DNA of 64,000 bases. Origin: Microbacteriaceae bacterium (GTDB taxonomy: Bacteria > Actinomycetota > Actinomycetes > Actinomycetales > Microbacteriaceae). Location of the stretch: NCBI GenBank assembly GCA_965657575.1, contig CBFHOK010000001.1, forward strand, positions 68,559 to 132,558, read 5' to 3'. The notes under the pieces are model-generated. The model saw nothing but the letters and a program-made list of their open reading frames with translations, did not search any database and was not told the origin of the DNA. Made by a program: the position numbers and the translations under genes. This document shows, one piece after another, positions 25,632 to 46,673 of the stretch (its first letter is position 1; every line of letters starts with the position of its first letter).

Positions 25632-26961
25632 CTCCGATTTTCAAAGAGCCCACCAGGAAATTCTTTCCAGAGTGGGGGAGGCGAAACCAACTCCTGATTT
25701 ATATCCAATGCAGCTTGCTGTTGAGCTATTGGGAGACCCGCATTTAGCTTTTCCTGTTATCCACATAACTGGAACAAATGGAAAAACATCAACAGCCAGG
25801 ATTATCGAGCGAATACTCAGGGAGCATGGGCTAAGAACAGGTCGTTACACATCACCGCACCTGGTTGATGTAAATGAGCGGATTGCGATTGATGGCGAAC
25901 CGTTGGAGAGTGAGCTATTTGCAGAATACTGGGATCAGATATCGCCGATTCTAGATTTAGCGGATTCCAAGCTTCAGGACATGGATAAGCCGAAGATTAC
26001 CTATTTTGAAGCGATGACACTCTTGGCCTTTCAGGCCTTTGCGGACTCTCCGGTGGATGTTGCAGTCATCGAAGTTGGGATGGGCGGTGAGTGGGATGCA
26101 ACCAATGTCGTGAACGCCCAGGTTGCGGTTTTTTCTCAAATTGCCCTCGATCACACAAAACAGCTTGGTAAAACAGTTAGCGAGGTAGCAAAGACCAAAT
26201 CTGGCATCATCAAACCTGAATCGATAGTTGTCACTCAGCAACAAAAGCCAGAGGCAGAGTTTCAGTTGAGAAATAAGCTTTTGGACGGTCAAAAAATGCT
26301 GGTTGAAAACACAGATTTTAGACTTGTCTCGCACAGACCTGAAAATGGCGGTTATCGCTTTTCGTTTGAGACCCAGTTGGTTGGCTATCAAAACCTTTTT
26401 CTGCCTTTAGCTGGCGAGTATCAGTTGAGAAATGCCATGTTGGCTGCAAGTGCTTGTGAGGCATTTCTTGGCGGTGGCCAGGTGGCTATTTCAGAGCCAA
26501 TTCTTCACAGCGCTTTGGCCGATGCCACCAGTCCCGGAAGGCTGCAGGTAATTAGCAAATCTCCAATGACAATTCTGGATGCCGCTCATAACCCGGCTGG
26601 AGCGCAATCGTTGGTTGACTCCCTAAAGCATTTCTTCGAAATCGAATCATGTGTCTTGGTTATGGGGACGATGGCCGATAAAGATTACGAACAAATGTTG
26701 GAAATCCTGAAACCAATCACCGCTCAACTTGTGATTACCCAGGCACAAACAGAACGCTCGGCAGAAACCTCGGCTCTCGCTGCAGCGGCTGAGAAGCTGG
26801 AAATTGAGTTTGAGGAGATTGAAAGCGTTGAATTGGCGCTTGAATACGCCACCGATATAGCCTTGGACAGAGATCTTCCGATTGTTGTTACTGGCAGTAT
26901 TTTGCTAATTGGTGAGATTATCAAACAAGAGCGGATGGAGGCTGAGATTGAAAAAGACTAG
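25624..26961 (+). CDS. folC: Bifunctional folylpolyglutamate synthase / dihydrofolate synthase
   Basis: Mur-ligase P-loop IHITGTNGKTST and overall FolC-like sequence. TTG start overlapping the ileS stop. Confidence 0.88.
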   Translation: MTDSDFQRAHQEILSRVGEAKPTPDLYPMQLAVELLGDPHLAFPVIHITGTNGKTSTARIIERILREHGLRTGRYTSPHLVDVNERIAIDGEPLESELFAEYWDQISPILDLADSKLQDMDKPKITYFEAMTLLAFQAFADSPVDVAVIEVGMGGEWDATNVVNAQVAVFSQIALDHTKQLGKTVSEVAKTKSGIIKPESIVVTQQQKPEAEFQLRNKLLDGQKMLVENTDFRLVSHRPENGGYRFSFETQLVGYQNLFLPLAGEYQLRNAMLAASACEAFLGGGQVAISEPILHSALADATSPGRLQVISKSPMTILDAAHNPAGAQSLVDSLKHFFEIESCVLVMGTMADKDYEQMLEILKPITAQLVITQAQTERSAETSALAAAAEKLEIEFEEIESVELALEYATDIALDRDLPIVVTGSILLIGEIIKQERMEAEIEKD

Positions 26962-38804: not shown

Positions 38805-39551
38805 GTGGCTATTTCACACAATCCGGTATTCAATCAATCAATGCGCAGTGGTGCGAAGGGGCTCCAGCAGGTTGAAGTTGACACAAGGTTTGAAGAGATA
38901 ACTTCGACCAGGCCAATGACTATGGAGGGAACCGCCTCCAAAGTTATTGGAATGCTCATGCTGGTGGTTTTGGGTGCTGCTGGAACCTGGGTTTTCAACC
39001 TAGAGTCACTGGCGTTCCCCGCCATGTTCGTGGGTCTTGGCTTGGGTCTATGGGCTGCTTTTTCAAAAGTAACTCGCCCATGGCTTTACTACCTATACGC
39101 AGCAGTTCAGGGCGTGTTCATAGGCGGTATTTCATCAATTTTTGAATCTATGTATCCGGGAATTGTTCAGAGTGCGGTTCTGGGAACTCTAACAACAGCC
39201 GGTGGAATGTTTGTCGCCTACCGCTTCGGCTGGATCAAGGTAAATGAAAGATTTACCAAGATAATGACCTTTGCACTCATTGGTTACTTTGGTTTTGCAA
39301 TGATCAACCTTGGGTTTGCTTTGTTCGGTGGCGGAGGAATTTACACCTCGCAGTTTGGCTGGATTGCTGCACTAATTGGTGTTGGCCTAGCTGCATTCAC
39401 TTTGAATCTCGATTTTGAGGCAATCAAACAGGGTGTTGCCCAAAGAGCTCCAGAGGAATTTGAGTGGAGGGCCGCATTTGGCATGACAGCCACTTTGGTC
39501 TGGCTCTACATTGAAATCCTCAGGATGCTTGCAATTTTTAATCAGGAATAA
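38805..39551 (+). CDS. Bax inhibitor-1/YccA family membrane protein
   Basis: N-terminal SHNPVF motif and seven hydrophobic segments. GTG start behind GAAGGAG. Confidence 0.8.
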   Translation: MAISHNPVFNQSMRSGAKGLQQVEVDTRFEEITSTRPMTMEGTASKVIGMLMLVVLGAAGTWVFNLESLAFPAMFVGLGLGLWAAFSKVTRPWLYYLYAAVQGVFIGGISSIFESMYPGIVQSAVLGTLTTAGGMFVAYRFGWIKVNERFTKIMTFALIGYFGFAMINLGFALFGGGGIYTSQFGWIAALIGVGLAAFTLNLDFEAIKQGVAQRAPEEFEWRAAFGMTATLVWLYIEILRMLAIFNQE

Positions 39552-39563
39552 TCTCGTACGGGT

Positions 39564-39598
39564 AAGGGGTGAGTTAGCCAGCCAGGCGCTCACCCCTT
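39564..39598. terminator. 10-bp perfect hairpin between the convergent BI-1 gene and dnaE2
   Basis: AAGGGGTGAG-N15-CTCACCCCTT. The 3' arm lies inside the last codons of dnaE2, and only a weak T-tract follows on the + strand. Confidence 0.4.
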
Positions 39599-42500
39599 TC
39601 CCATTTAATCCACAGTTGATTTAGATCCCAAGCATTCTCCGCCAAAACGGAAACACCGTTTTTACCGGTTCTTCTGAGTTTGCCCGATATTAAAAGCATC
39701 CTGTTGTTGAACAAAAGCTCCGAGCACCTAGCTTGAGCCTCGTCAAAAAAAGTTGCATCCGCACACCCCGAACCATCATCCAGGCTAATAAAAACAACCC
39801 GCTTGCCACTTCTCATTGGTGGGGTCTGCGTGGCCACTCTGACGCCAGCAACCAACACCTCTGTGTTTCCTCGTAGGGTTTTTAGTTCACTTGCCATTGA
39901 TGCCCCAAGATCATCGAGCATCGGTCGGTATTTATCTATTATGTGTGAGGAGATGTCCATGCCGGTGAGTTGAAGCTCCTGATCCAGCTGCTGTTCAATC
40001 GTGAATTGCGGATTGCCTGAAGTTATTTCTTGACCAACAGTGAAATCTAGTTCGGCTTGAGAGGGGTTTATATTCGGAGCCGGCTTAGTTGTCATTTCCC
40101 GAATTTTTTGAATTATGTCTCCGCGGGTAACTGACACATCGACCAGCGAATCCAGTGCACCTATTGCGGCCAAGCGAGCAATTGTTTTTCTTGAGGGTCG
40201 TGCTTTTGTATAGAAATCAGCAAGGTCCCTAAAAGGTGCGTTTTTGATGATTCTGCTTATTTCAGGGGTCGATATGCCAGCAATCTCAATAAGTGACATT
40301 CTCACCCCTTTTTTTCCAGAGAGTTTCTCCACCCAGTATTCATCCGTTGATTTATTCACATCAATCGGCCACAGTTCAACCCCAAGTCGTCTAGCTTCTG
40401 CAAGAAGCAACCTCTTTGGATACATCCCTGGATCATGGGTCAGAATGCCAGCTATGAACTCAGCTGGATAGTGAGTTTTTAGCCAGGCTGATTGATATGT
40501 GGGGAGTGCGAAGGCAGCTCCATGAGCCTTGCAGAAACCAAAGCTTCCAAACCCCTCCAGCACCTGCCAAACCCTATTTACGACAGCTGTTTTATAACCC
40601 CTGGCGAGTGAGCTTTGTTTGAAATAGGACTCAATTTCCTGCTTTCTGTCTGGATTTGACATCTTTCTGCGCATCTCGTCGGCCTTTGCCAGAGTGCAGC
40701 CGGTCATCACCTTCATGATTCTCATCAATTGTTCGTGAAAGACCACCACTCCGTAGCTTTCTTCCAGTATTGGTTTTAAATCTGGATGAAAATAATCCGG
40801 TTGAATAAAGCCGTGCCTACCGTCCAGGTAGGGGGAAATCATGTTTCCCTTCATCGGCCCCGGCCTAAAAAGTGAAATTTGCAATGTGAGGTCATTGAAT
40901 TCTGTTGGCTGATGCTTGCCGGTGAGCTCTCTTTGGCCTGGGCTTTCAATTTGGAAAATACCCAAAGTATTGGTGGTTCTAATTAGCTCGAACACCTTCT
41001 TGTCATCGGTTGCTACTGAATCCAGGTCAAGTTTTTTATTTTCAACTCTCTCAACCTCACTCACCGCATAAGCCATTGTGCTTTGCATCCTTACTCCCAA
41101 AACATCAAGCTTCAAAAATCCCAGCGGATCCATGTCGTCTTTATCAAACTGACTCATCGGAAGCCCTAAGCCGCTTGGTTCGGTGGGGGTTAGATCTAAA
41201 AGTCTTCTATCACCAAGAATCACTCCGCAGGGGTGCATTGAAATATGCCGGGGGAGTTTGTCTAACCTTTGGGTTAGGTCAACAAGCAGATTTAGTTTTC
41301 TATCTTTCCCAACCTGCTTGGCAAGTTTTGCCAACTCGGGCTTTACCTCCAAAGCCGCCCTAAAACTTCTTGCGCTAAACCGCCAAGAACTTTTTGCAAT
41401 CTGATCAATTTGATCCTCATCTAAGCCCAGTGCCAGTCCGCTGTCTCGAATCGCACCCCTGCCTCGATATGTTGACTGCATTGAAAGCAAAGTCACCCGG
41501 TCGCCACCGTAGCGACGAAAGATTGCTCGATATATCTCATGCCTTCTTGCAGATTCAACATCTATGTCGATATCCGGAAGAGTGGATCTTTCGGTGGATA
41601 GAAATCTTTCAAATAACAAACCTTGTTCAATTGGGTCAATGTGACTTATGCCAAGCAGGTAGTTCACTAAAGATCCGGCCCCCGAACCTCGGGCGGCGAT
41701 TCTGATTCGCATGTCTCTAATCATTTGAGCGACATCTGCAACGGTTAGAAAAAAAGTTGCAAAGCCAAGCTTGTTTATGGTGATCAACTCTTTTGAAAGC
41801 TGGTGTTGAACCTGTGTAATAAGGCTTGGTTTTGCATCTGGATAGCGATAATCGATTGCTGAGTGGGTTTTTTGCCAAAGCACTTCAAATGGATTCCCCT
41901 CTATTCCAAGCAGTTGCTTTTCAGGTGTCTTCGGTCTTCCCCAATCGCAGTCTTCAACTGGGTCTATTCGGCATCTATCTGTTAGTTGCTCGGTTGTCGC
42001 CAAGAGTTTTTTGGCAGATTTTGTATCTCCAGTAATTTCAAGAGCCAGCGATGCCATTTCTGCAGGGGGTTTTAGCCATGCCTGCGCATTTGGCTGAGGG
42101 AGAAAAATACCAAGTGGCTCCAAATGCCTCGCGGAGTCTAAAACATCTGCGGTGAGTGCATCATCGGGCTGCAGGTATCTTGCCGCATTCGTAAGCACCG
42201 CTGGAAGCTTTTTATAATCTGCAAGTGAGATAAGAGCCCTGGCGTGCTCATTTGAATAGCTTGTCCCAGGCTCTGTTAGGTGGCTAAAGACTTCAATCGC
42301 CAAGCTGCCACGAGTGTTGAAATGCTCCATCCACCGATCTAGCAACTTGGAGGCTTTTGTTGGTTCGAAAAGGGATGATCTACCAACATCGCTGTCTGGC
42401 CCAAGTAAAACAGTGCAGTTGGCTAAATCTTGTTGAGTTAGTTCAGCTAACTCTTTTCTATCAATGGAGGGTGCTTCGTTTTTCTTTTTCTGATGGGCTT

Positions 42501-42825
42501 TGCTGATTATTCGGCAAAGCGCACTCCACCCAGCCCCACGATTGTGCCCATGTGACAAGATAACAACTCTGCCAAGTGAGATCTGGTCTGTAACCTCGAG
42601 GCTTACGCCAATAATGGGGTCTATTTTGTTTTCAATGCAGGCAGCTATGTGCTTGGCTGCACCATAAAGACCATCTCTGTCCGTTATCGCCAGTGCGTCA
42701 AATCCAAGTTGCTTGGCTTGAAAAACTGCTTGTTCAGGTCGGTTTACTCCAAAATGAGCAGAATAGGCTGAAGAAAAATTGAGATGAGTAAAACCGGCCA
42801 CTAGATAATTCGCACCAACTTCCAC
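39574..42825 (-). CDS. dnaE2: Error-prone DNA polymerase III alpha-subunit paralog DnaE2 (ImuC)
   Basis: 1083 aa with a PHP domain followed by the Pol III alpha core (FLTVADVAQMIRD..., GSGAGSLVNYLLGISHIDP, PDIDIDVES). It is LexA-box controlled via the upstream ORF. The start is GTG 42825, or GTG 42801 sharing a G with the upstream TAG. Confidence 0.9.
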   Translation of the reverse strand: MEVGANYLVAGFTHLNFSSAYSAHFGVNRPEQAVFQAKQLGFDALAITDRDGLYGAAKHIAACIENKIDPIIGVSLEVTDQISLGRVVILSHGHNRGAGWSALCRIISKAHQKKKNEAPSIDRKELAELTQQDLANCTVLLGPDSDVGRSSLFEPTKASKLLDRWMEHFNTRGSLAIEVFSHLTEPGTSYSNEHARALISLADYKKLPAVLTNAARYLQPDDALTADVLDSARHLEPLGIFLPQPNAQAWLKPPAEMASLALEITGDTKSAKKLLATTEQLTDRCRIDPVEDCDWGRPKTPEKQLLGIEGNPFEVLWQKTHSAIDYRYPDAKPSLITQVQHQLSKELITINKLGFATFFLTVADVAQMIRDMRIRIAARGSGAGSLVNYLLGISHIDPIEQGLLFERFLSTERSTLPDIDIDVESARRHEIYRAIFRRYGGDRVTLLSMQSTYRGRGAIRDSGLALGLDEDQIDQIAKSSWRFSARSFRAALEVKPELAKLAKQVGKDRKLNLLVDLTQRLDKLPRHISMHPCGVILGDRRLLDLTPTEPSGLGLPMSQFDKDDMDPLGFLKLDVLGVRMQSTMAYAVSEVERVENKKLDLDSVATDDKKVFELIRTTNTLGIFQIESPGQRELTGKHQPTEFNDLTLQISLFRPGPMKGNMISPYLDGRHGFIQPDYFHPDLKPILEESYGVVVFHEQLMRIMKVMTGCTLAKADEMRRKMSNPDRKQEIESYFKQSSLARGYKTAVVNRVWQVLEGFGSFGFCKAHGAAFALPTYQSAWLKTHYPAEFIAGILTHDPGMYPKRLLLAEARRLGVELWPIDVNKSTDEYWVEKLSGKKGVRMSLIEIAGISTPEISRIIKNAPFRDLADFYTKARPSRKTIARLAAIGALDSLVDVSVTRGDIIQKIREMTTKPAPNINPSQAELDFTVGQEITSGNPQFTIEQQLDQELQLTGMDISSHIIDKYRPMLDDLGASMASELKTLRGNTEVLVAGVRVATQTPPMRSGKRVVFISLDDGSGCADATFFDEAQARCSELLFNNRMLLISGKLRRTGKNGVSVLAENAWDLNQLWIKWERGERLAG

Positions 42826-43085
42826 TCATCACGTGAGCTACTGTGCCTCAACTCAAAAAGACCACTATCTCCTTCAGATTGAGCTCTAACCCTCCACATT
42901 TCAACTTCTATAAATTCAGCGGAAAAGCCCTTTGGTGCCTGATCTATCTCTCTCCACCAGCTTTTTCTTACATACCAACGAACCGGAACGCCTGTTGCCA
43001 GATAGTGCGACCCTCGCCAATCAAAGCTGACTGGCTGACCGTCATGGTTTGTCATAACGGCAATAGGCTCATCTACTTGAATCAA
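42801..43085 (-). CDS. Uncharacterised 94-aa Trp/Arg-rich protein, first gene of the SOS-box-controlled dnaE2 operon
   Basis: Track ORF. TTG start with AAGGGGAA 7 nt upstream, and the 3' end overlaps dnaE2. The sequence includes PVSFDWRGSHYLATGVPVRWYVRKSWWREI. I recall, but cannot verify, that similar small proteins near actinobacterial imuB/dnaE2 are classed only as a domain of unknown function. Confidence 0.65.
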   Translation of the reverse strand: MIQVDEPIAVMTNHDGQPVSFDWRGSHYLATGVPVRWYVRKSWWREIDQAPKGFSAEFIEVEMWRVRAQSEGDSGLFELRHSSSRDEWKLVRII

Positions 43086-43100
43086 CTAAGTTCCCCTTAT

Positions 43101-43116
43101 TCGAACATTTGTTCGA
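43101..43116. promoter_or_regulatory. LexA operator (actinobacterial SOS box)
   Basis: TCGAACATTTGTTCGA is a perfect match to the mycobacterial/actinobacterial consensus TCGAAC-N4-GTTCGA. It lies 16-31 nt upstream of the ORF94 start. Confidence 0.8.
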
Positions 43117-43121
43117 ATAGA

Positions 43122-43150
43122 AGTCTAAGAGATTCCTAGGACATTGTGAA
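43122..43150 (-). promoter_or_regulatory. Putative promoter of the ORF94-dnaE2 operon
   Basis: The reverse strand reads TTCACA-N17-TAGACT, followed 5 nt later by the SOS box. LexA would therefore sit on or just after the transcription start. Confidence 0.45.
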
Positions 43151-43153
43151 GTG

Positions 43154-43822
43154 CTAATCGAATAGCTTTTGCTCCGATTCGGGCGCAATCAATCCCGGAT
43201 GGTTGTTTCTAACGGCACCAACAGCCTTATTCACCTCATAAAAATTCAGTGTTTTTGCAATTTCATCAGATTGAGTAGCAATATCTGCTAGAAGTTGACG
43301 GGAATCTGAGTCTGGATCGAGCCATGAATCAATGTCTTCAACCATTACTGGGTTTCTGTCGTGAATGTGTTTAATTTCATGAGCTGACTCTTTGGTGACT
43401 ACGCTCACGCTGTAATTGGAGCTCAATTTATTTGGTGGTTCGAAAATGGCCGCGAACATCAGAAGTTTTTTCGAATGGATAAAAAAGGGCGTCTTTTGAG
43501 CTCCATTCTGTGTCCATTCAAAATAACCACTGGCAGGGACAATTCCTCTACGGGCAGTTAGTGAATTTTTGAAGCTTGGCTTTTCAGCTACAGTCTCTAC
43601 TCGAGCATTTATAAGTGGCGAACTTGGCGGAGCAGCTGCCCAAGATGGGATAAGTCCCCAGCTCGCACCGATCAGTAGCTTCTCTGGGTGATTAATCACA
43701 AGCGGTATTGATTGGGTGGGGGCGAAGTTGAAGCTTGGAAGTTTTCCTTCAAAACAATCCTCTGCCAAAAGCTCGAGGCTTAATTCAGCACTGGATTTGG
43801 AGACCACAAATCGGCCACACAT
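43154..43822 (-). CDS. SOS response-associated peptidase (SRAP/YedK family, abasic-site processing protein)
   Basis: MCGRF N-terminus (catalytic Cys2), YFEW, and HDRNPV (HDRMP-like). Confidence 0.88.
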   Translation of the reverse strand: MCGRFVVSKSSAELSLELLAEDCFEGKLPSFNFAPTQSIPLVINHPEKLLIGASWGLIPSWAAAPPSSPLINARVETVAEKPSFKNSLTARRGIVPASGYFEWTQNGAQKTPFFIHSKKLLMFAAIFEPPNKLSSNYSVSVVTKESAHEIKHIHDRNPVMVEDIDSWLDPDSDSRQLLADIATQSDEIAKTLNFYEVNKAVGAVRNNHPGLIAPESEQKLFD

Positions 43823-43824
43823 GC

Positions 43825-44460
43825 CTAGTCGCTTATCCTGTCGCTGAATTTCTGCAAAAACTTTTTGGCCAAAGCAATTATCGCTAGGGCTGCAAGCAAG
43901 ATTCCAATTGCCACCAGTGAGCCAAACCTTAGGTTTTCACTGAGCAGTTCATAGCTTTCCCTAGCCAGGAAGCCAACACCAACATAAAGCGATGCCCAGA
44001 TGGTGCAGGCTGCAAAGGTCCAGGAGATGAAGACCTTGTAGGGCATCTTCGTTGCGCCTGCAACTGCCGGAACAACGCTGTGAAGGACGGGTAAGAATCG
44101 AGATATAAATACAGCGACCCCACCCCTTCGGGCGACAAACTTTTCGGCTTTATCCCAGCGATGCTGACCAATTGCCTTACCCAATCTGGTGTTTCGAAGT
44201 TTCGGTCCGAGCCAGAAGCCAATTGAGTAGCCGATTGTTTCGCCAATCAACGAGCCAACCAGCACCGCCATTAGAAGCCATCCAAAATCTCCCCAGTCCA
44301 GTACGCCGGTGGAGGCAACCAAGACAACGGTGTCACCGGGTATTACAAGACCAAGCAGGATTGTTGTTTCCAGCATGATCGCTAAACCTGCAAGCAAATT
44401 GCGAATCCCAGGATGCACTCCCTGCACAGCATCTATGAATGCATCCACGTATTCGTTCAT
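43825..44460 (-). CDS. DedA family membrane protein
   Basis: GLVIPGDTVVLVAS..., and RFLPVLHSVVPAVAG is typical of DedA/SNARE-associated proteins. Its stop lies 2 nt from the SRAP start. Confidence 0.85.
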   Translation of the reverse strand: MNEYVDAFIDAVQGVHPGIRNLLAGLAIMLETTILLGLVIPGDTVVLVASTGVLDWGDFGWLLMAVLVGSLIGETIGYSIGFWLGPKLRNTRLGKAIGQHRWDKAEKFVARRGGVAVFISRFLPVLHSVVPAVAGATKMPYKVFISWTFAACTIWASLYVGVGFLARESYELLSENLRFGSLVAIGILLAALAIIALAKKFLQKFSDRISD

Positions 44461-44549: not shown

Positions 44550-45332
44550 CTAAGAAATTTGCGACCTAAGGAGATGCATTCTGGTTCTGAACGACTTTAA
44601 TTTTTCTACTGGTCCTACGTCTACACCCTTCCAGCTCTGAACGCCCCTCACGCCTTGCAAGCTCGATGCACTCCAAATTTCTAAACCGTGTAAATCTGCT
44701 GGCCGGCATTTTTCGGTAACGGTTTCATACCCTGCTTGATTTGCCAAATCAAATAATTCCTGGCGAGTAATCGAGTCAAGCCAATTGGTTTCATCGTTTG
44801 GCCCGCATAACCTGTCCTCTCGCCACCAGAGAATGCTTGAAAGAGCACCGTCAGCGATGAAGCCCTCCGTGTCCAATAACACCGCTTCGTCCGCACCATG
44901 CAGGTTTGCCTTGCGTCTTAGCTGTTGGCACAGAGACAGGTCCGGCCCCTTTATGAGCGGGTTTTCTCTTGGGTCTGTTTCTGGGTATGTCCATAGGGAG
45001 GTAAATTCAGTTCTTTCGGGTGCTGGGCGGATTCGCAAAAACAATCGATCACCCAGGGTGCTGTGTTGTCTGAATTCAATCCGCGGAAACCATTCGCCTG
45101 TTTTTGGCAATGCCTGCCTCACCGTTTCAAAGAATTCATCAAACGTCTGGTTGTCTATTCGTTCATGCTGGACCACCCAGGTTTGGAATCTCTGAAAGTG
45201 TCTATCTAAGGACCTTGTTTTTCCATTTTCAACCAACCAAGAATCGGCAACGGTGAGTGCTGTTGTGTCAGTCTTATCAAAGTTGATAAGTTTTCCCGAG
45301 TCAAAGACTAGGAAATCACCTTCAACGCTCAC
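44550..45332 (-). CDS. Class IV aminotransferase-fold protein, probably aminodeoxychorismate lyase
   Basis: 260 aa with a fold-type IV-like C-terminal half (GADEAVLLDTEGFIADGALSSILW). It is divergent from pabB. Confidence 0.65.
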   Translation of the reverse strand: MSVEGDFLVFDSGKLINFDKTDTTALTVADSWLVENGKTRSLDRHFQRFQTWVVQHERIDNQTFDEFFETVRQALPKTGEWFPRIEFRQHSTLGDRLFLRIRPAPERTEFTSLWTYPETDPRENPLIKGPDLSLCQQLRRKANLHGADEAVLLDTEGFIADGALSSILWWREDRLCGPNDETNWLDSITRQELFDLANQAGYETVTEKCRPADLHGLEIWSASSLQGVRGVQSWKGVDVGPVEKLKSFRTRMHLLRSQIS

Positions 45333-45377: not shown

Positions 45378-46673
45378 TTGAAAATGCTATTTACAGAGAA
45401 GTTAACAAACTGGTGGTACAACCCAGACGATGTTTATTTATCTCTTTACGCATCCCTCTCAAACAGTTTTTATTTCGATCGCTCAAATAACGCTGAAGCC
45501 TATTCAATTATCGGTTCTGGTGAGGTCTTCGAATTTTCTTCTTTCGACGAACTTCAATTCGAGCAATCTGACGATGGTGCAGACCTTCCGTTCAGCTTCC
45601 GACCAGGGGTGGTTGTCGCGCTGAACTATGAAATGGGCCTTGCCCACATGGGAATAGGTTCTGGAGGTGTTTCGAAGGGCATAAAGGTTGATCGTGCGAT
45701 GGTTTTTGGTCATCAAGAAAGAGCCTGCTGGTTGGTTGGAAGTTTTTCAACCCAGAATGATTTCGATAACTGGAAGCACTCGGTGTTTTTGCGAATTGCT
45801 CTAACTGGCGGAGAATCTCTCAACTTGACTGGGGAGGTAAGCGCCAAACTTCGATCTTTGAATTCCGAACAGAGCTACCTGAGGGCAGTTGAGGAGTGCA
45901 GGAACCAGATTGAAAAGGGGCAGAGTTATCAACTGTGCTTGACCACTTCGTTGACTGGAACAATTAATGCCGATCCGAAAGAAGTCTTTTATCACCTAAA
46001 GAAAAGGCACCCAGCACCCTTTGCATCCATAATCGATTTCGGTGACACTCAACTCGTTTCTATTTCTCCAGAGTTGTTCTGCTCAATAAATAAAGGAGTT
46101 ATCAGGTCTTCTCCAATAAAAGGCACCCGACCGCGAAGCGATAATGAAAAACGGGATAGAGAAATCAGCCAAGAGCTTTTATCGAATGAGAAAGAGCGTG
46201 CCGAAAACCTGATGATTGTTGATCTGGTTAGAAATGATTTGACGAAAGTCAGTGAGCTAGATTCGGTGGTTACCGAGAAGCTATTTGAACTTCAAAGTTT
46301 TAGCAGTGTGCATCAACTTGTTTCAACCGTTTCAGCCAAGCTGCACGAGGACTATTCAGTCACCCAAGCAATACAAAGTCTTTTCCCTGCAGGTTCGATG
46401 ACCGGAGCACCGAAGCACTCAGCGGTGAGTTTTTTGAAAGACCTGGAGGTAACCGAAAGAGGTTTTTACTCCGGCGCTTTTGGCTGGATAGGTGGCAACG
46501 GAGATAGCGAGCTGGCAATGACCATTCGCAGCATTATTGTCTCTGAAGATCGGTGCTCAATTGGAGTTGGTGGAGGTATCACCTGGGGGAGTGACCCAAA
46601 ATCGGAGTATTTGGAGATGCAATTGAAAGCAAAAGCTCTGGTTGAGACCATTCGAGGTGATGTAACTTGGTAA
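45378..46673 (+). CDS. pabB: Aminodeoxychorismate synthase component I (chorismate-binding enzyme)
   Basis: SPELF, PIKGTRPR, ENLMIVDLVRNDL and FPAGSMTGAPK motifs. The start is TTG 45378 or ATG 45384. Confidence 0.8.
   Translation: MKMLFTEKLTNWWYNPDDVYLSLYASLSNSFYFDRSNNAEAYSIIGSGEVFEFSSFDELQFEQSDDGADLPFSFRPGVVVALNYEMGLAHMGIGSGGVSKGIKVDRAMVFGHQERACWLVGSFSTQNDFDNWKHSVFLRIALTGGESLNLTGEVSAKLRSLNSEQSYLRAVEECRNQIEKGQSYQLCLTTSLTGTINADPKEVFYHLKKRHPAPFASIIDFGDTQLVSISPELFCSINKGVIRSSPIKGTRPRSDNEKRDREISQELLSNEKERAENLMIVDLVRNDLTKVSELDSVVTEKLFELQSFSSVHQLVSTVSAKLHEDYSVTQAIQSLFPAGSMTGAPKHSAVSFLKDLEVTERGFYSGAFGWIGGNGDSELAMTIRSIIVSEDRCSIGVGGGITWGSDPKSEYLEMQLKAKALVETIRGDVTW

Follow-up and report, generated by a model that had tools for sequence, protein, structure and literature searches.

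The 64 kb stretch of DNA analysed here (the window) carries, at 42801..43085 on the minus strand, a 94-residue open reading frame (ORF) directly upstream of dnaE2, a gene for an error-prone C-family DNA polymerase. In mycobacteria and many other bacteria, DnaE2 mutasomes are the source of mutations induced by DNA damage and thereby of drug resistance. We consider it likely that the ORF encodes a stand-alone ImuB-C protein acting as the sole accessory subunit of a two-gene, LexA-repressed DnaE2B-ImuB-C translesion module. This class of module is already described computationally (PMC3765255, PMC12926913), and the window copy is an additional example of it from a probably streamlined lineage. 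The elements of the locus are as follows:

42801..43085, minus strand: stand-alone ImuB-C (DUF6504) gene, 94 amino acids (aa), TTG start; from its translation, Pfam, the ratio of nonsynonymous to synonymous substitution rates (dN/dS) and an AlphaFold2 (AF2) model
39574..42801, minus strand: dnaE2, DnaE2B-type error-prone C-family polymerase, 1075 aa from its probable start; from domains and identity
42799..42803, minus strand: TAGTG junction, in which the ORF stop shares a G with the GTG start of dnaE2; from an alignment of relatives
43091..43098, minus strand: ribosome-binding site (RBS) AAGGGGAA, 5 nt ahead of the TTG; read from the sequence
43101..43116, both strands: LexA (SOS) box TCGAACAAATGTTCGA, a perfect palindrome of actinobacterial type; from a pattern scan
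43122..43150, minus strand: promoter-like site with -35 TTCACA, a 17-nt spacer and -10 TAGACT; from a sigma-70-like consensus scan
40042..40059, minus strand: QAELDF, a beta-clamp-binding-like motif at DnaE2 residues 915-920, between the HhH and OB domains

Contrary to the first-pass annotation of this DNA, which had recognised no family in the ORF product, residues 4-93 align with positions 6-101 of the 103-position Pfam model DUF6504 (PF20114) at 36.9 bits (E=4.5e-9), above the gathering threshold of 24.2 bits. The same label falls on 11 of 11 close homologues, and members of the family carry the NCBI name "DUF6504 family protein"; no enzyme family was matched by the window protein in Pfam or NCBIfam. 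No papers were found under the name "DUF6504", and the link to the literature came solely via the name "ImuB-C". DUF6504 corresponds to the ImuB-C superfamily defined by Aravind, Anand and Iyer in 2013, which its authors characterised as all-beta, with conservation of a Trp at the C-terminus and of basic residues; it has solo versions beside DnaE2 and SRAP and is also associated with DinB, UmuC, Ku/ligase and photolyase genes (PMC3765255). The window protein has the features of that superfamily: a predicted all-beta domain of ~90-100 residues, basic residues, a conserved C-terminal Trp and no catalytic signature. It is rich in Trp and Arg; W43, W44 and W88 are invariant, W88 across 40 diverse members, and R36 and R40 are invariant across 56 aligned sequences.

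The DUF6504 profile search was exhaustive, covering 1.84 billion representative sequences, and the family comprises 258 representative clusters. Among the best 150 of these, nearly all are stand-alone proteins of ~90-130 aa and none is a fusion of ImuB length. The sole long match, P0028 (772 aa), was rejected as a fusion; it consists of ~13 tandem copies of a ~56-residue unit, is matched by the DUF6504 profile again and again along its length, and has the appearance of translated repetitive DNA or of an assembly error. Some members carry additional segments that the window protein lacks: P0021, P0062 and P0066 share a conserved C-terminal tail ending in LD(A/Q)(Q/R)LFA, possibly a peptide that binds the clamp or a partner, and P0043, P0053 and P0094 have an N-terminal extension with G-V-(T/A/V)-R-L-V-P-(P/A).

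The published ImuB-C proteins ALV45565 and QBR94233 were matched at 85 and 46 bits, respectively, by a DUF6504 hidden Markov model (HMM) built here from 40 diverse members, and BLASTP aligns the window protein with ALV45565 at E=1e-12. For comparison with ImuB itself, HMMs were made from ten ImuA and ten ImuB proteins, the ten ImuBs coming from plasmid imuA-imuB-dnaE2 cassettes. Two ImuB-C proteins from split systems, ACZ39476 and ADJ25744, reach 22 and 15 bits when scored by the DUF6504 HMM, and the HMM of ImuB C-termini gives them 19 and 25 bits; since both match both profiles, they bridge DUF6504 to true ImuB C-termini. Pfam DUF6504 also matches residues 428-482 of S. meliloti ImuB (E=0.0065), and hhalign aligns the DUF6504 and ImuB C-terminus profiles over 39 columns in the register of that match (P=7e-4, probability 26%). 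The window ORF ranks top of the 503 window ORFs with the ImuB C-terminus HMM, at only 6.6 bits, and is the top window match for two of the ten ImuB queries (Azospirillum and Sphingomonas). The motifs P-VS-x-WRG, GP-x-R, WW, E/D-x-W/Y-R-V and a C-terminal W can be aligned by eye. At the level of sequence, the predicted homology of DUF6504 to the ImuB C-terminus is well supported by transitivity and weak by direct comparison, and because the direct similarity is weak the ImuB link depends on intermediates and published assignments. Of the three first-pass suggestions for the ORF, these profile links favour the second, that a domain known as part of ImuB occurs here by itself; to the first-pass question whether a profile search would find a DUF or the ImuB C-terminus, the answer is DUF6504 above threshold, with ImuB C-termini linked via intermediates.

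The downstream polymerase contains PHP, DNA_pol3_alpha, finger, HHH_6 and OB domains, and its best NCBIfam match is 'error-prone DNA polymerase'. It begins MAGFTHLNFSS, so that its PHP motif is HLNFSS. Proofreading-competent DnaE1 has HLHxHS at this position, and the difference leads us to read the PHP motif of the window polymerase as degenerate. A 2026 survey in Nucleic Acids Research split DnaE2 into A, B and X groups and found DnaE2B in genomes without imuA/imuB, the group linked only to ImuB-C being restricted to Actinobacteria (PMC12926913). The window DnaE2 shows 50-54% identity to the copies from Arthrobacter and Agreia but only 28-31% to DnaE2 of imuA-imuB cassettes (DnaE2A). Its identity to the Arthrobacter alpinus DnaE2B exemplar ALV45564 is 45% over the N-terminal 378 residues; the assignment to group A or B rests on percent identity, not on phylogeny. 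An ImuB-C gene adjacent to and co-oriented with a B-group DnaE2 is the arrangement that defines the DnaE2B-ImuB-C module, and it is the one seen here. The QAELDF of the window polymerase and the QLALPL of Arthrobacter DnaE2B occupy the canonical DnaE clamp-motif position; QLSLPL is the other Arthrobacter version of the aligned motif, Nesterenkonia DnaE2B has QLALPI, and three ImuB-linked DnaE2 have no clamp-like motif there. A previous survey had recorded an atypical motif, QLPLx, in certain actinobacterial DnaE2. We infer from its position that QAELDF may mediate clamp binding by the window DnaE2.

Two candidate starts for dnaE2 are both present, GTG 42801 with a one-base overlap and GTG 42825 with a 25-nt overlap, and public gene calls for the same dnaE2 (L043-L046) are split between 1075 aa and, from GTG 42825, 1083 aa. 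TAGTG is conserved in the relatives' loci L001-L005, and in Rhodoluna the junction reads TAA-tc-ATG, its ATG aligned to GTG 42801. We therefore take GTG 42801 as the start, and dnaE2 probably spans 39574..42801 and encodes 1075 aa. Both junctions had been offered in the first-pass annotation; the alignment of relatives favours the one-base overlap and makes the 25-nt overlap less likely. In annotated or ORF-called relatives the spacing runs from a 4-nt overlap to a 12-nt gap, the latter in L008 and counted from the earliest in-frame start; annotated relatives range from a 4-nt overlap to a 6-nt gap. A strong Shine-Dalgarno sequence (SD) directly ahead of the dnaE2 GTG is absent. The claim of coupled translation thus stands as to the stop-start overlap, which is seen, and coupling itself would be its probable consequence.

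The 94-aa ORF is a real gene under strong purifying selection. dN/dS, estimated by the Nei-Gojobori method on the window ORF and its five closest relatives, is 0.05-0.14 in every non-saturated pair, and it does not exceed 0.29 against the Rhodoluna copies, which are more distant. Relatives with as little as 50% identity still keep the length of the ORF, its start codon, the RBS and the LexA box. The TTG aligns with TTG, GTG or ATG in the seven closest relatives, which fixes it as the start, and the RBS core GGGGA is conserved in 7/7 close relatives; the identical 94-aa protein occurs on 21 public metagenome contigs. A scan of relatives with one genome per species gave 28 loci with a relative of the ORF, from Microbacteriaceae metagenome-assembled genomes, Rhodoluna, many Arthrobacter/Pseudarthrobacter, Nesterenkonia, Citricoccus and Rothia. 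A dnaE2 homologue lies directly 3' on the same strand in 26 of them (Microbacteriaceae, Arthrobacter, Nesterenkonia). Conservation beside dnaE2 and purifying selection had both been set as tests in the first-pass annotation, and both are seen. The pair is also found on an Arthrobacter conjugative plasmid and an Agreia plasmid, annotated "DUF6504 family protein" and "DNA polymerase III subunit alpha". Where the genes 5' of the pair were looked at, in a single Arthrobacter and a single Nesterenkonia locus, they are unrelated transporters, so that the conserved unit there is the ImuB-C/dnaE2 pair.

As had been noted before, the ORF has an RBS and stands behind a perfect LexA box, and the translation, RBS and box quoted at that time are all present in the sequence. 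TCGAAC-N4-GTTCGA is the established operator of actinobacterial LexA; TCGAACAAATGTTCGA, 15 nt ahead of the ORF start, is its sole zero-mismatch match in the window. Further LexA boxes in the window amount to four two-mismatch sites, no excess over chance expectation; a two-mismatch LexA-like site at 26687 lies inside a 445-aa ORF. The box is identical in L001-L005, the Rhodoluna version is TCGAACACTTGTTCGA, and 24 of 30 loci have a LexA box with at most one mismatch within 300 nt 5' of the homologous gene. The promoter is a consensus match only, with both hexamers near-identical in L001-L005; it sits in the 68-nt gap between the SRAP gene described below and the ORF, and its -10-like hexamer ends 5 nt upstream of the LexA box. 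At that distance bound LexA would cover the probable transcription start. The window ORF has, by its sequence, the operator at the promoter that marks members of the LexA regulon, and the SOS control proposed in the first-pass annotation is predicted on the basis of this perfect and conserved operator.

ORFs for ImuA, ImuB or a Y-family polymerase were sought with the ImuA and ImuB HMMs, and none was found in the window; nor did seven representative 14-20 kb loci of relatives contain ImuA, ImuB or PolY. The window accordingly holds no canonical ImuA/ImuA'-ImuB-DnaE2 mutasome. Earlier statements that no such partner lies in cis, and that the ORF occupies the slot where imuA'/imuB would otherwise be, agree with this result. 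Rhodoluna lacicola, Ca. R. planktonica and Aquiluna borgnonia, with genomes of 1.36-1.43 Mb, have DnaE1, DnaE2B and PolA1 only and zero Y-family polymerases (PMC12926913). The GC content of the window is ~48% and its closest named relatives are Rhodoluna, which makes an origin in such a streamlined lineage probable. If this Rhodoluna-like origin holds, the ImuB-C/DnaE2B pair would be the only specialised polymerase of the lineage.

The AF2 model of the ORF product, made with 56 homologues, has a predicted local distance difference test score (pLDDT) of 85.6 and consists of seven beta strands with no helix. A loop of low confidence, residues 44-57, begins at W44 and contains a conserved A-P-K-G. 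Foldseek found no significant match in PDB (best E=0.63, with a template modelling score (TM) below 0.5) and none in BFVD, where the best hit was A0A8S5PG70 (E=0.033, TM 0.51). The DUF6504 profile matched no PDB sequence even at E=10, and PDB contains no solved ImuB structure. According to the 2026 survey ImuB-C is a beta-barrel that has no near neighbours in PDB and is distinct from the SH3 barrel of UmuD'/YolD (PMC12926913), and the lack of a significant Foldseek match for the window model agrees with this published statement of a novel fold. As a separate observation, A0A8S5PG70 is an uncharacterised 100-aa siphovirus protein and might be a phage-borne ImuB-C-like protein.

We propose the following sequence of events. 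In undamaged cells LexA, bound to the palindrome just 3' of the -10, would block transcription, as the geometry of the site implies. DNA damage would lead to RecA-stimulated cleavage of LexA and to one bicistronic mRNA, on which ribosomes ending the ImuB-C cistron would reinitiate at the overlapping dnaE2 GTG, so that both proteins would be made together. ImuB-C would then dock on the PHP domain of DnaE2, which is degenerate and presumably does not proofread. Published AlphaFold models show this placement for the orthologues from Arthrobacter and Cryobacterium, and likewise for the domain as part of M. tuberculosis ImuB (PMC12926913). The pair ALV45564/ALV45565 of Arthrobacter alpinus and that of Cryobacterium arcticum gave AlphaFold-Multimer interface scores (ipTM, interface predicted template modelling) of 0.87 and 0.94 (PMC12926913). 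DnaE2B might reach the beta clamp adaptor-free via its own clamp-like motif, the motif being seen and the binding presumed, and such a motif would make the polymerase-like ImuB body and ImuA' dispensable. The first-pass annotation had spoken of a novel DnaE2 accessory: an accessory role is plausible, but the accessory is not novel, as the pairing was described and modelled in 2026 (PMC12926913).

We also put forward, tentatively, a wider version of this proposal. In Luna-cluster Microbacteriaceae, which are freshwater bacteria with streamlined genomes, three DNA polymerases and no Y-family member, the pair could be the entire, self-sufficient machinery of translesion synthesis and induced mutagenesis, with clamp binding through QAELDF and with the W-W...A-P-K-G loop of ImuB-C as the single competence switch. 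It would then be a minimal two-protein bacterial mutasome without a RecA-like or Y-family part. ImuB-C may act with the neighbouring SRAP protein as abasic-site sensor.

A different function was envisaged by Aravind et al. 2013, in which ImuB-C is mainly a sensor of DNA lesions or structures that recruits nearby repair enzymes, not a fixed PHP-bound subunit. Such a role would fit the abundance of Trp and Arg with invariant W43, W44 and W88, the conserved low-confidence loop 44-57, the existence of solitary LexA-controlled copies without dnaE2, and the superfamily's links to DinB, UmuC, Ku/ligase and photolyase genes (PMC3765255). We nevertheless hold it to be unlikely as the main function. In the relatives checked the gene overlaps dnaE2 stop to start or nearly abuts it, which points to a stoichiometric partner, the published multimer models put ImuB-C on the PHP domain with ipTM of 0.87-0.94, and Foldseek recognised no DNA-binding fold. 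A sensor role and PHP binding may coexist.

The other explanations concern the status of the ORF more than its partner. Decay was among the first-pass suggestions, and the ORF product is indeed a probable homologue of the last ~90 residues of ImuB and its gene sits at the imuB position upstream of dnaE2, as a functionless remnant would after loss of the polymerase-like part. We regard this as scarcely credible and have given it up: dN/dS is 0.05-0.14, the length and the gene's own start, RBS and LexA box are conserved down to 50% identity, nearly all of the best 150 of the family's 258 clusters are stand-alone, as are the copies of Arthrobacter, Nesterenkonia and the plasmids, and the 68 nt to the SRAP gene leave no room for imuB debris. 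That the act of translation controls dnaE2 and the product is irrelevant, the ORF being a regulatory upstream ORF, would suit the stop/start overlap, the lack of a strong SD before the dnaE2 GTG and the LexA box at the 5' end, but it is very improbable in view of the strong amino-acid conservation, the confidently predicted fold and the large protein family; translational coupling is, besides, compatible with a functional ImuB-C protein. The ORF also recalls umuD, in that its product is small and beta-rich and the gene, presumably controlled by LexA, stands right ahead of one for a translesion polymerase, and it might on that account specify a subunit with a UmuD'/YolD-like, SH3-like barrel activated by RecA-mediated cleavage. 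The protein has no peptidase domain or cleavage motif, however, Foldseek returned no UmuD'/SH3-like match (best E=0.63, TM below 0.5), and the survey separates the ImuB-C barrel from the UmuD'/YolD SH3 barrel (PMC12926913), all of which makes this idea highly improbable.

Several points weigh against our proposal of a stand-alone ImuB-C as the sole accessory subunit of DnaE2B. The direct likeness of the window protein to the ImuB C-terminus is weak (6.6 bits; hhalign probability 26% over 39 columns), and the AF2 model of full-length ImuB, made with Rhizobium-type ImuBs of at least 79% identity, has a pLDDT of 48, too poor for a fold comparison. The complex of a stand-alone ImuB-C with DnaE2 is known from published models only, and QAELDF deviates from the QL[SD]LF consensus. 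The absence of imuA/imuB extends only to the 64 kb window and the published relatives. Finally, DUF6504 genes without an adjacent dnaE2 occur in Rothia santali (L027 9938..10300) and Citricoccus (L021 9866..10336), which shows that DUF6504 function is not strictly tied to DnaE2.

Upstream of the pair is a gene for a SRAP protein, and the surrounding genes are of housekeeping type, their order being syntenic in L001-L005 and L043-L044:

43154..43822, minus strand: SRAP (YedK/HMCES-type, abasic-site crosslinking) gene with an intact MCGR N-terminus; Pfam SRAP, E=3.3e-51, and translation
43825..44460, minus strand: DedA/VTT membrane protein, directly upstream of SRAP
44550..45332, minus strand: class IV aminotransferase (pabC-like), divergent from the chorismate-binding enzyme
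45378..46673, plus strand: chorismate-binding enzyme (pabB-like), forming with the former a pabC/pabB-like pair
38805..39551, plus strand: Bax-inhibitor-like protein, convergent with dnaE2

In the window and in L001-L005, SRAP is the gene directly upstream of ImuB-C; in seven Arthrobacter-group loci (L009, L011, L018-L020 and L022 among them) it lies 0.4-3.0 kb upstream. On the plasmids it is divergent (Agreia) or convergent (Arthrobacter) (L029 8289..8990; L030 2928..3629), and it is also found beside imuA on S. meliloti and Paracoccus plasmids. SRAP is a recurrent neighbour and not necessarily in the operon; its recurrent placement suggests that SRAP, ImuB-C and dnaE2 form a three-gene functional association that moves horizontally. 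Many of the SRAP proteins (window 43157..43177, minus strand; L001-L026) have short C-terminal tails with a hydrophobic pair near the end, as in SEQKLFD, EEALF, GAVLF, DPLL and PDLLES, and these tails are loosely like C-terminal clamp-binding peptides, none of them being cleanly QxxLF. The solitary Rothia copy of DUF6504 has a perfect LexA box ~60 nt upstream and an FAA-hydrolase gene downstream, and its product might work with a Y-family polymerase, or with DnaE1, specified at another locus. Small ORFs of 77-97 aa that abut dnaE2 in canonical imuA-imuB-dnaE2 cassettes (L039 2301..2534, L037 5745..6032 and L038 5859..6152, on Gluconobacter, Burkholderia and Sphingomonas plasmids) were considered as counterparts and rejected, being unrelated to DUF6504 or to each other.

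Only the C-terminal domain of ImuB is retained here, as a separate 94-aa protein, and the pair thereby isolates the seemingly indispensable part of ImuB. For the question how DnaE2 is enabled by ImuB and ImuA' it offers a model that is both clean and minimal, and in organisms without another translesion polymerase the phenotypes of deletions should be unambiguous.

Among known systems, UmuD'2 and YolD/YqjX of the Pol V type resemble the window locus in having a small beta-rich accessory and LexA-controlled co-transcription with an error-prone polymerase; they differ in their unrelated fold, and the partner here is a C-family and not a Y-family polymerase and has no self-cleavage module beside it. 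The split systems (DnaE2X-iPolY-ImuB-C-RecA, with ACZ39476 and ADJ25744, and GSU0042-like proteins with DinB; PMC3765255) likewise have a free-standing, SOS/translesion-linked ImuB-C of ~95 aa, but their Y-family polymerase, inactive or active, and the RecA on which they depend have no counterpart in cis at the window locus. With the canonical ImuA/ImuA'-ImuB-DnaE2 mutasome of M. tuberculosis and Proteobacteria the window locus shares the probably homologous domain, including P-VS-x-WRG, GPxR, WW and the C-terminal Trp, the position of the domain's gene upstream of dnaE2, and SOS control, which is predicted for the window. Published models make the ImuB C-terminal domain the principal contact to DnaE2, at the PHP domain (PMC12926913). 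The difference is that the domain is a separate polypeptide here, with marginal direct sequence similarity, and that the window locus lacks the polymerase-like body, the part of canonical ImuB that carries the clamp-binding motif and makes contact with ImuA'. The closest counterpart is the DnaE2B-ImuB-C module of Micrococcales (PMC12926913), in which, as here, no imuA/imuB is nearby and a small ImuB-C gene lies directly upstream of a DnaE2B-type polymerase. Compared with the A. alpinus exemplar, the window copy probably comes from a low-GC (~48%), Rhodoluna-related lineage with streamlined genomes, whose published Rhodoluna-type relatives have zero Y-family polymerases against three in A. alpinus; its ImuB-C protein is 94 aa long and without the C-terminal tail of the 110-aa ALV45565, and the clamp-like motif of its polymerase is QAELDF where the A. 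alpinus DnaE2B has QLALPL.

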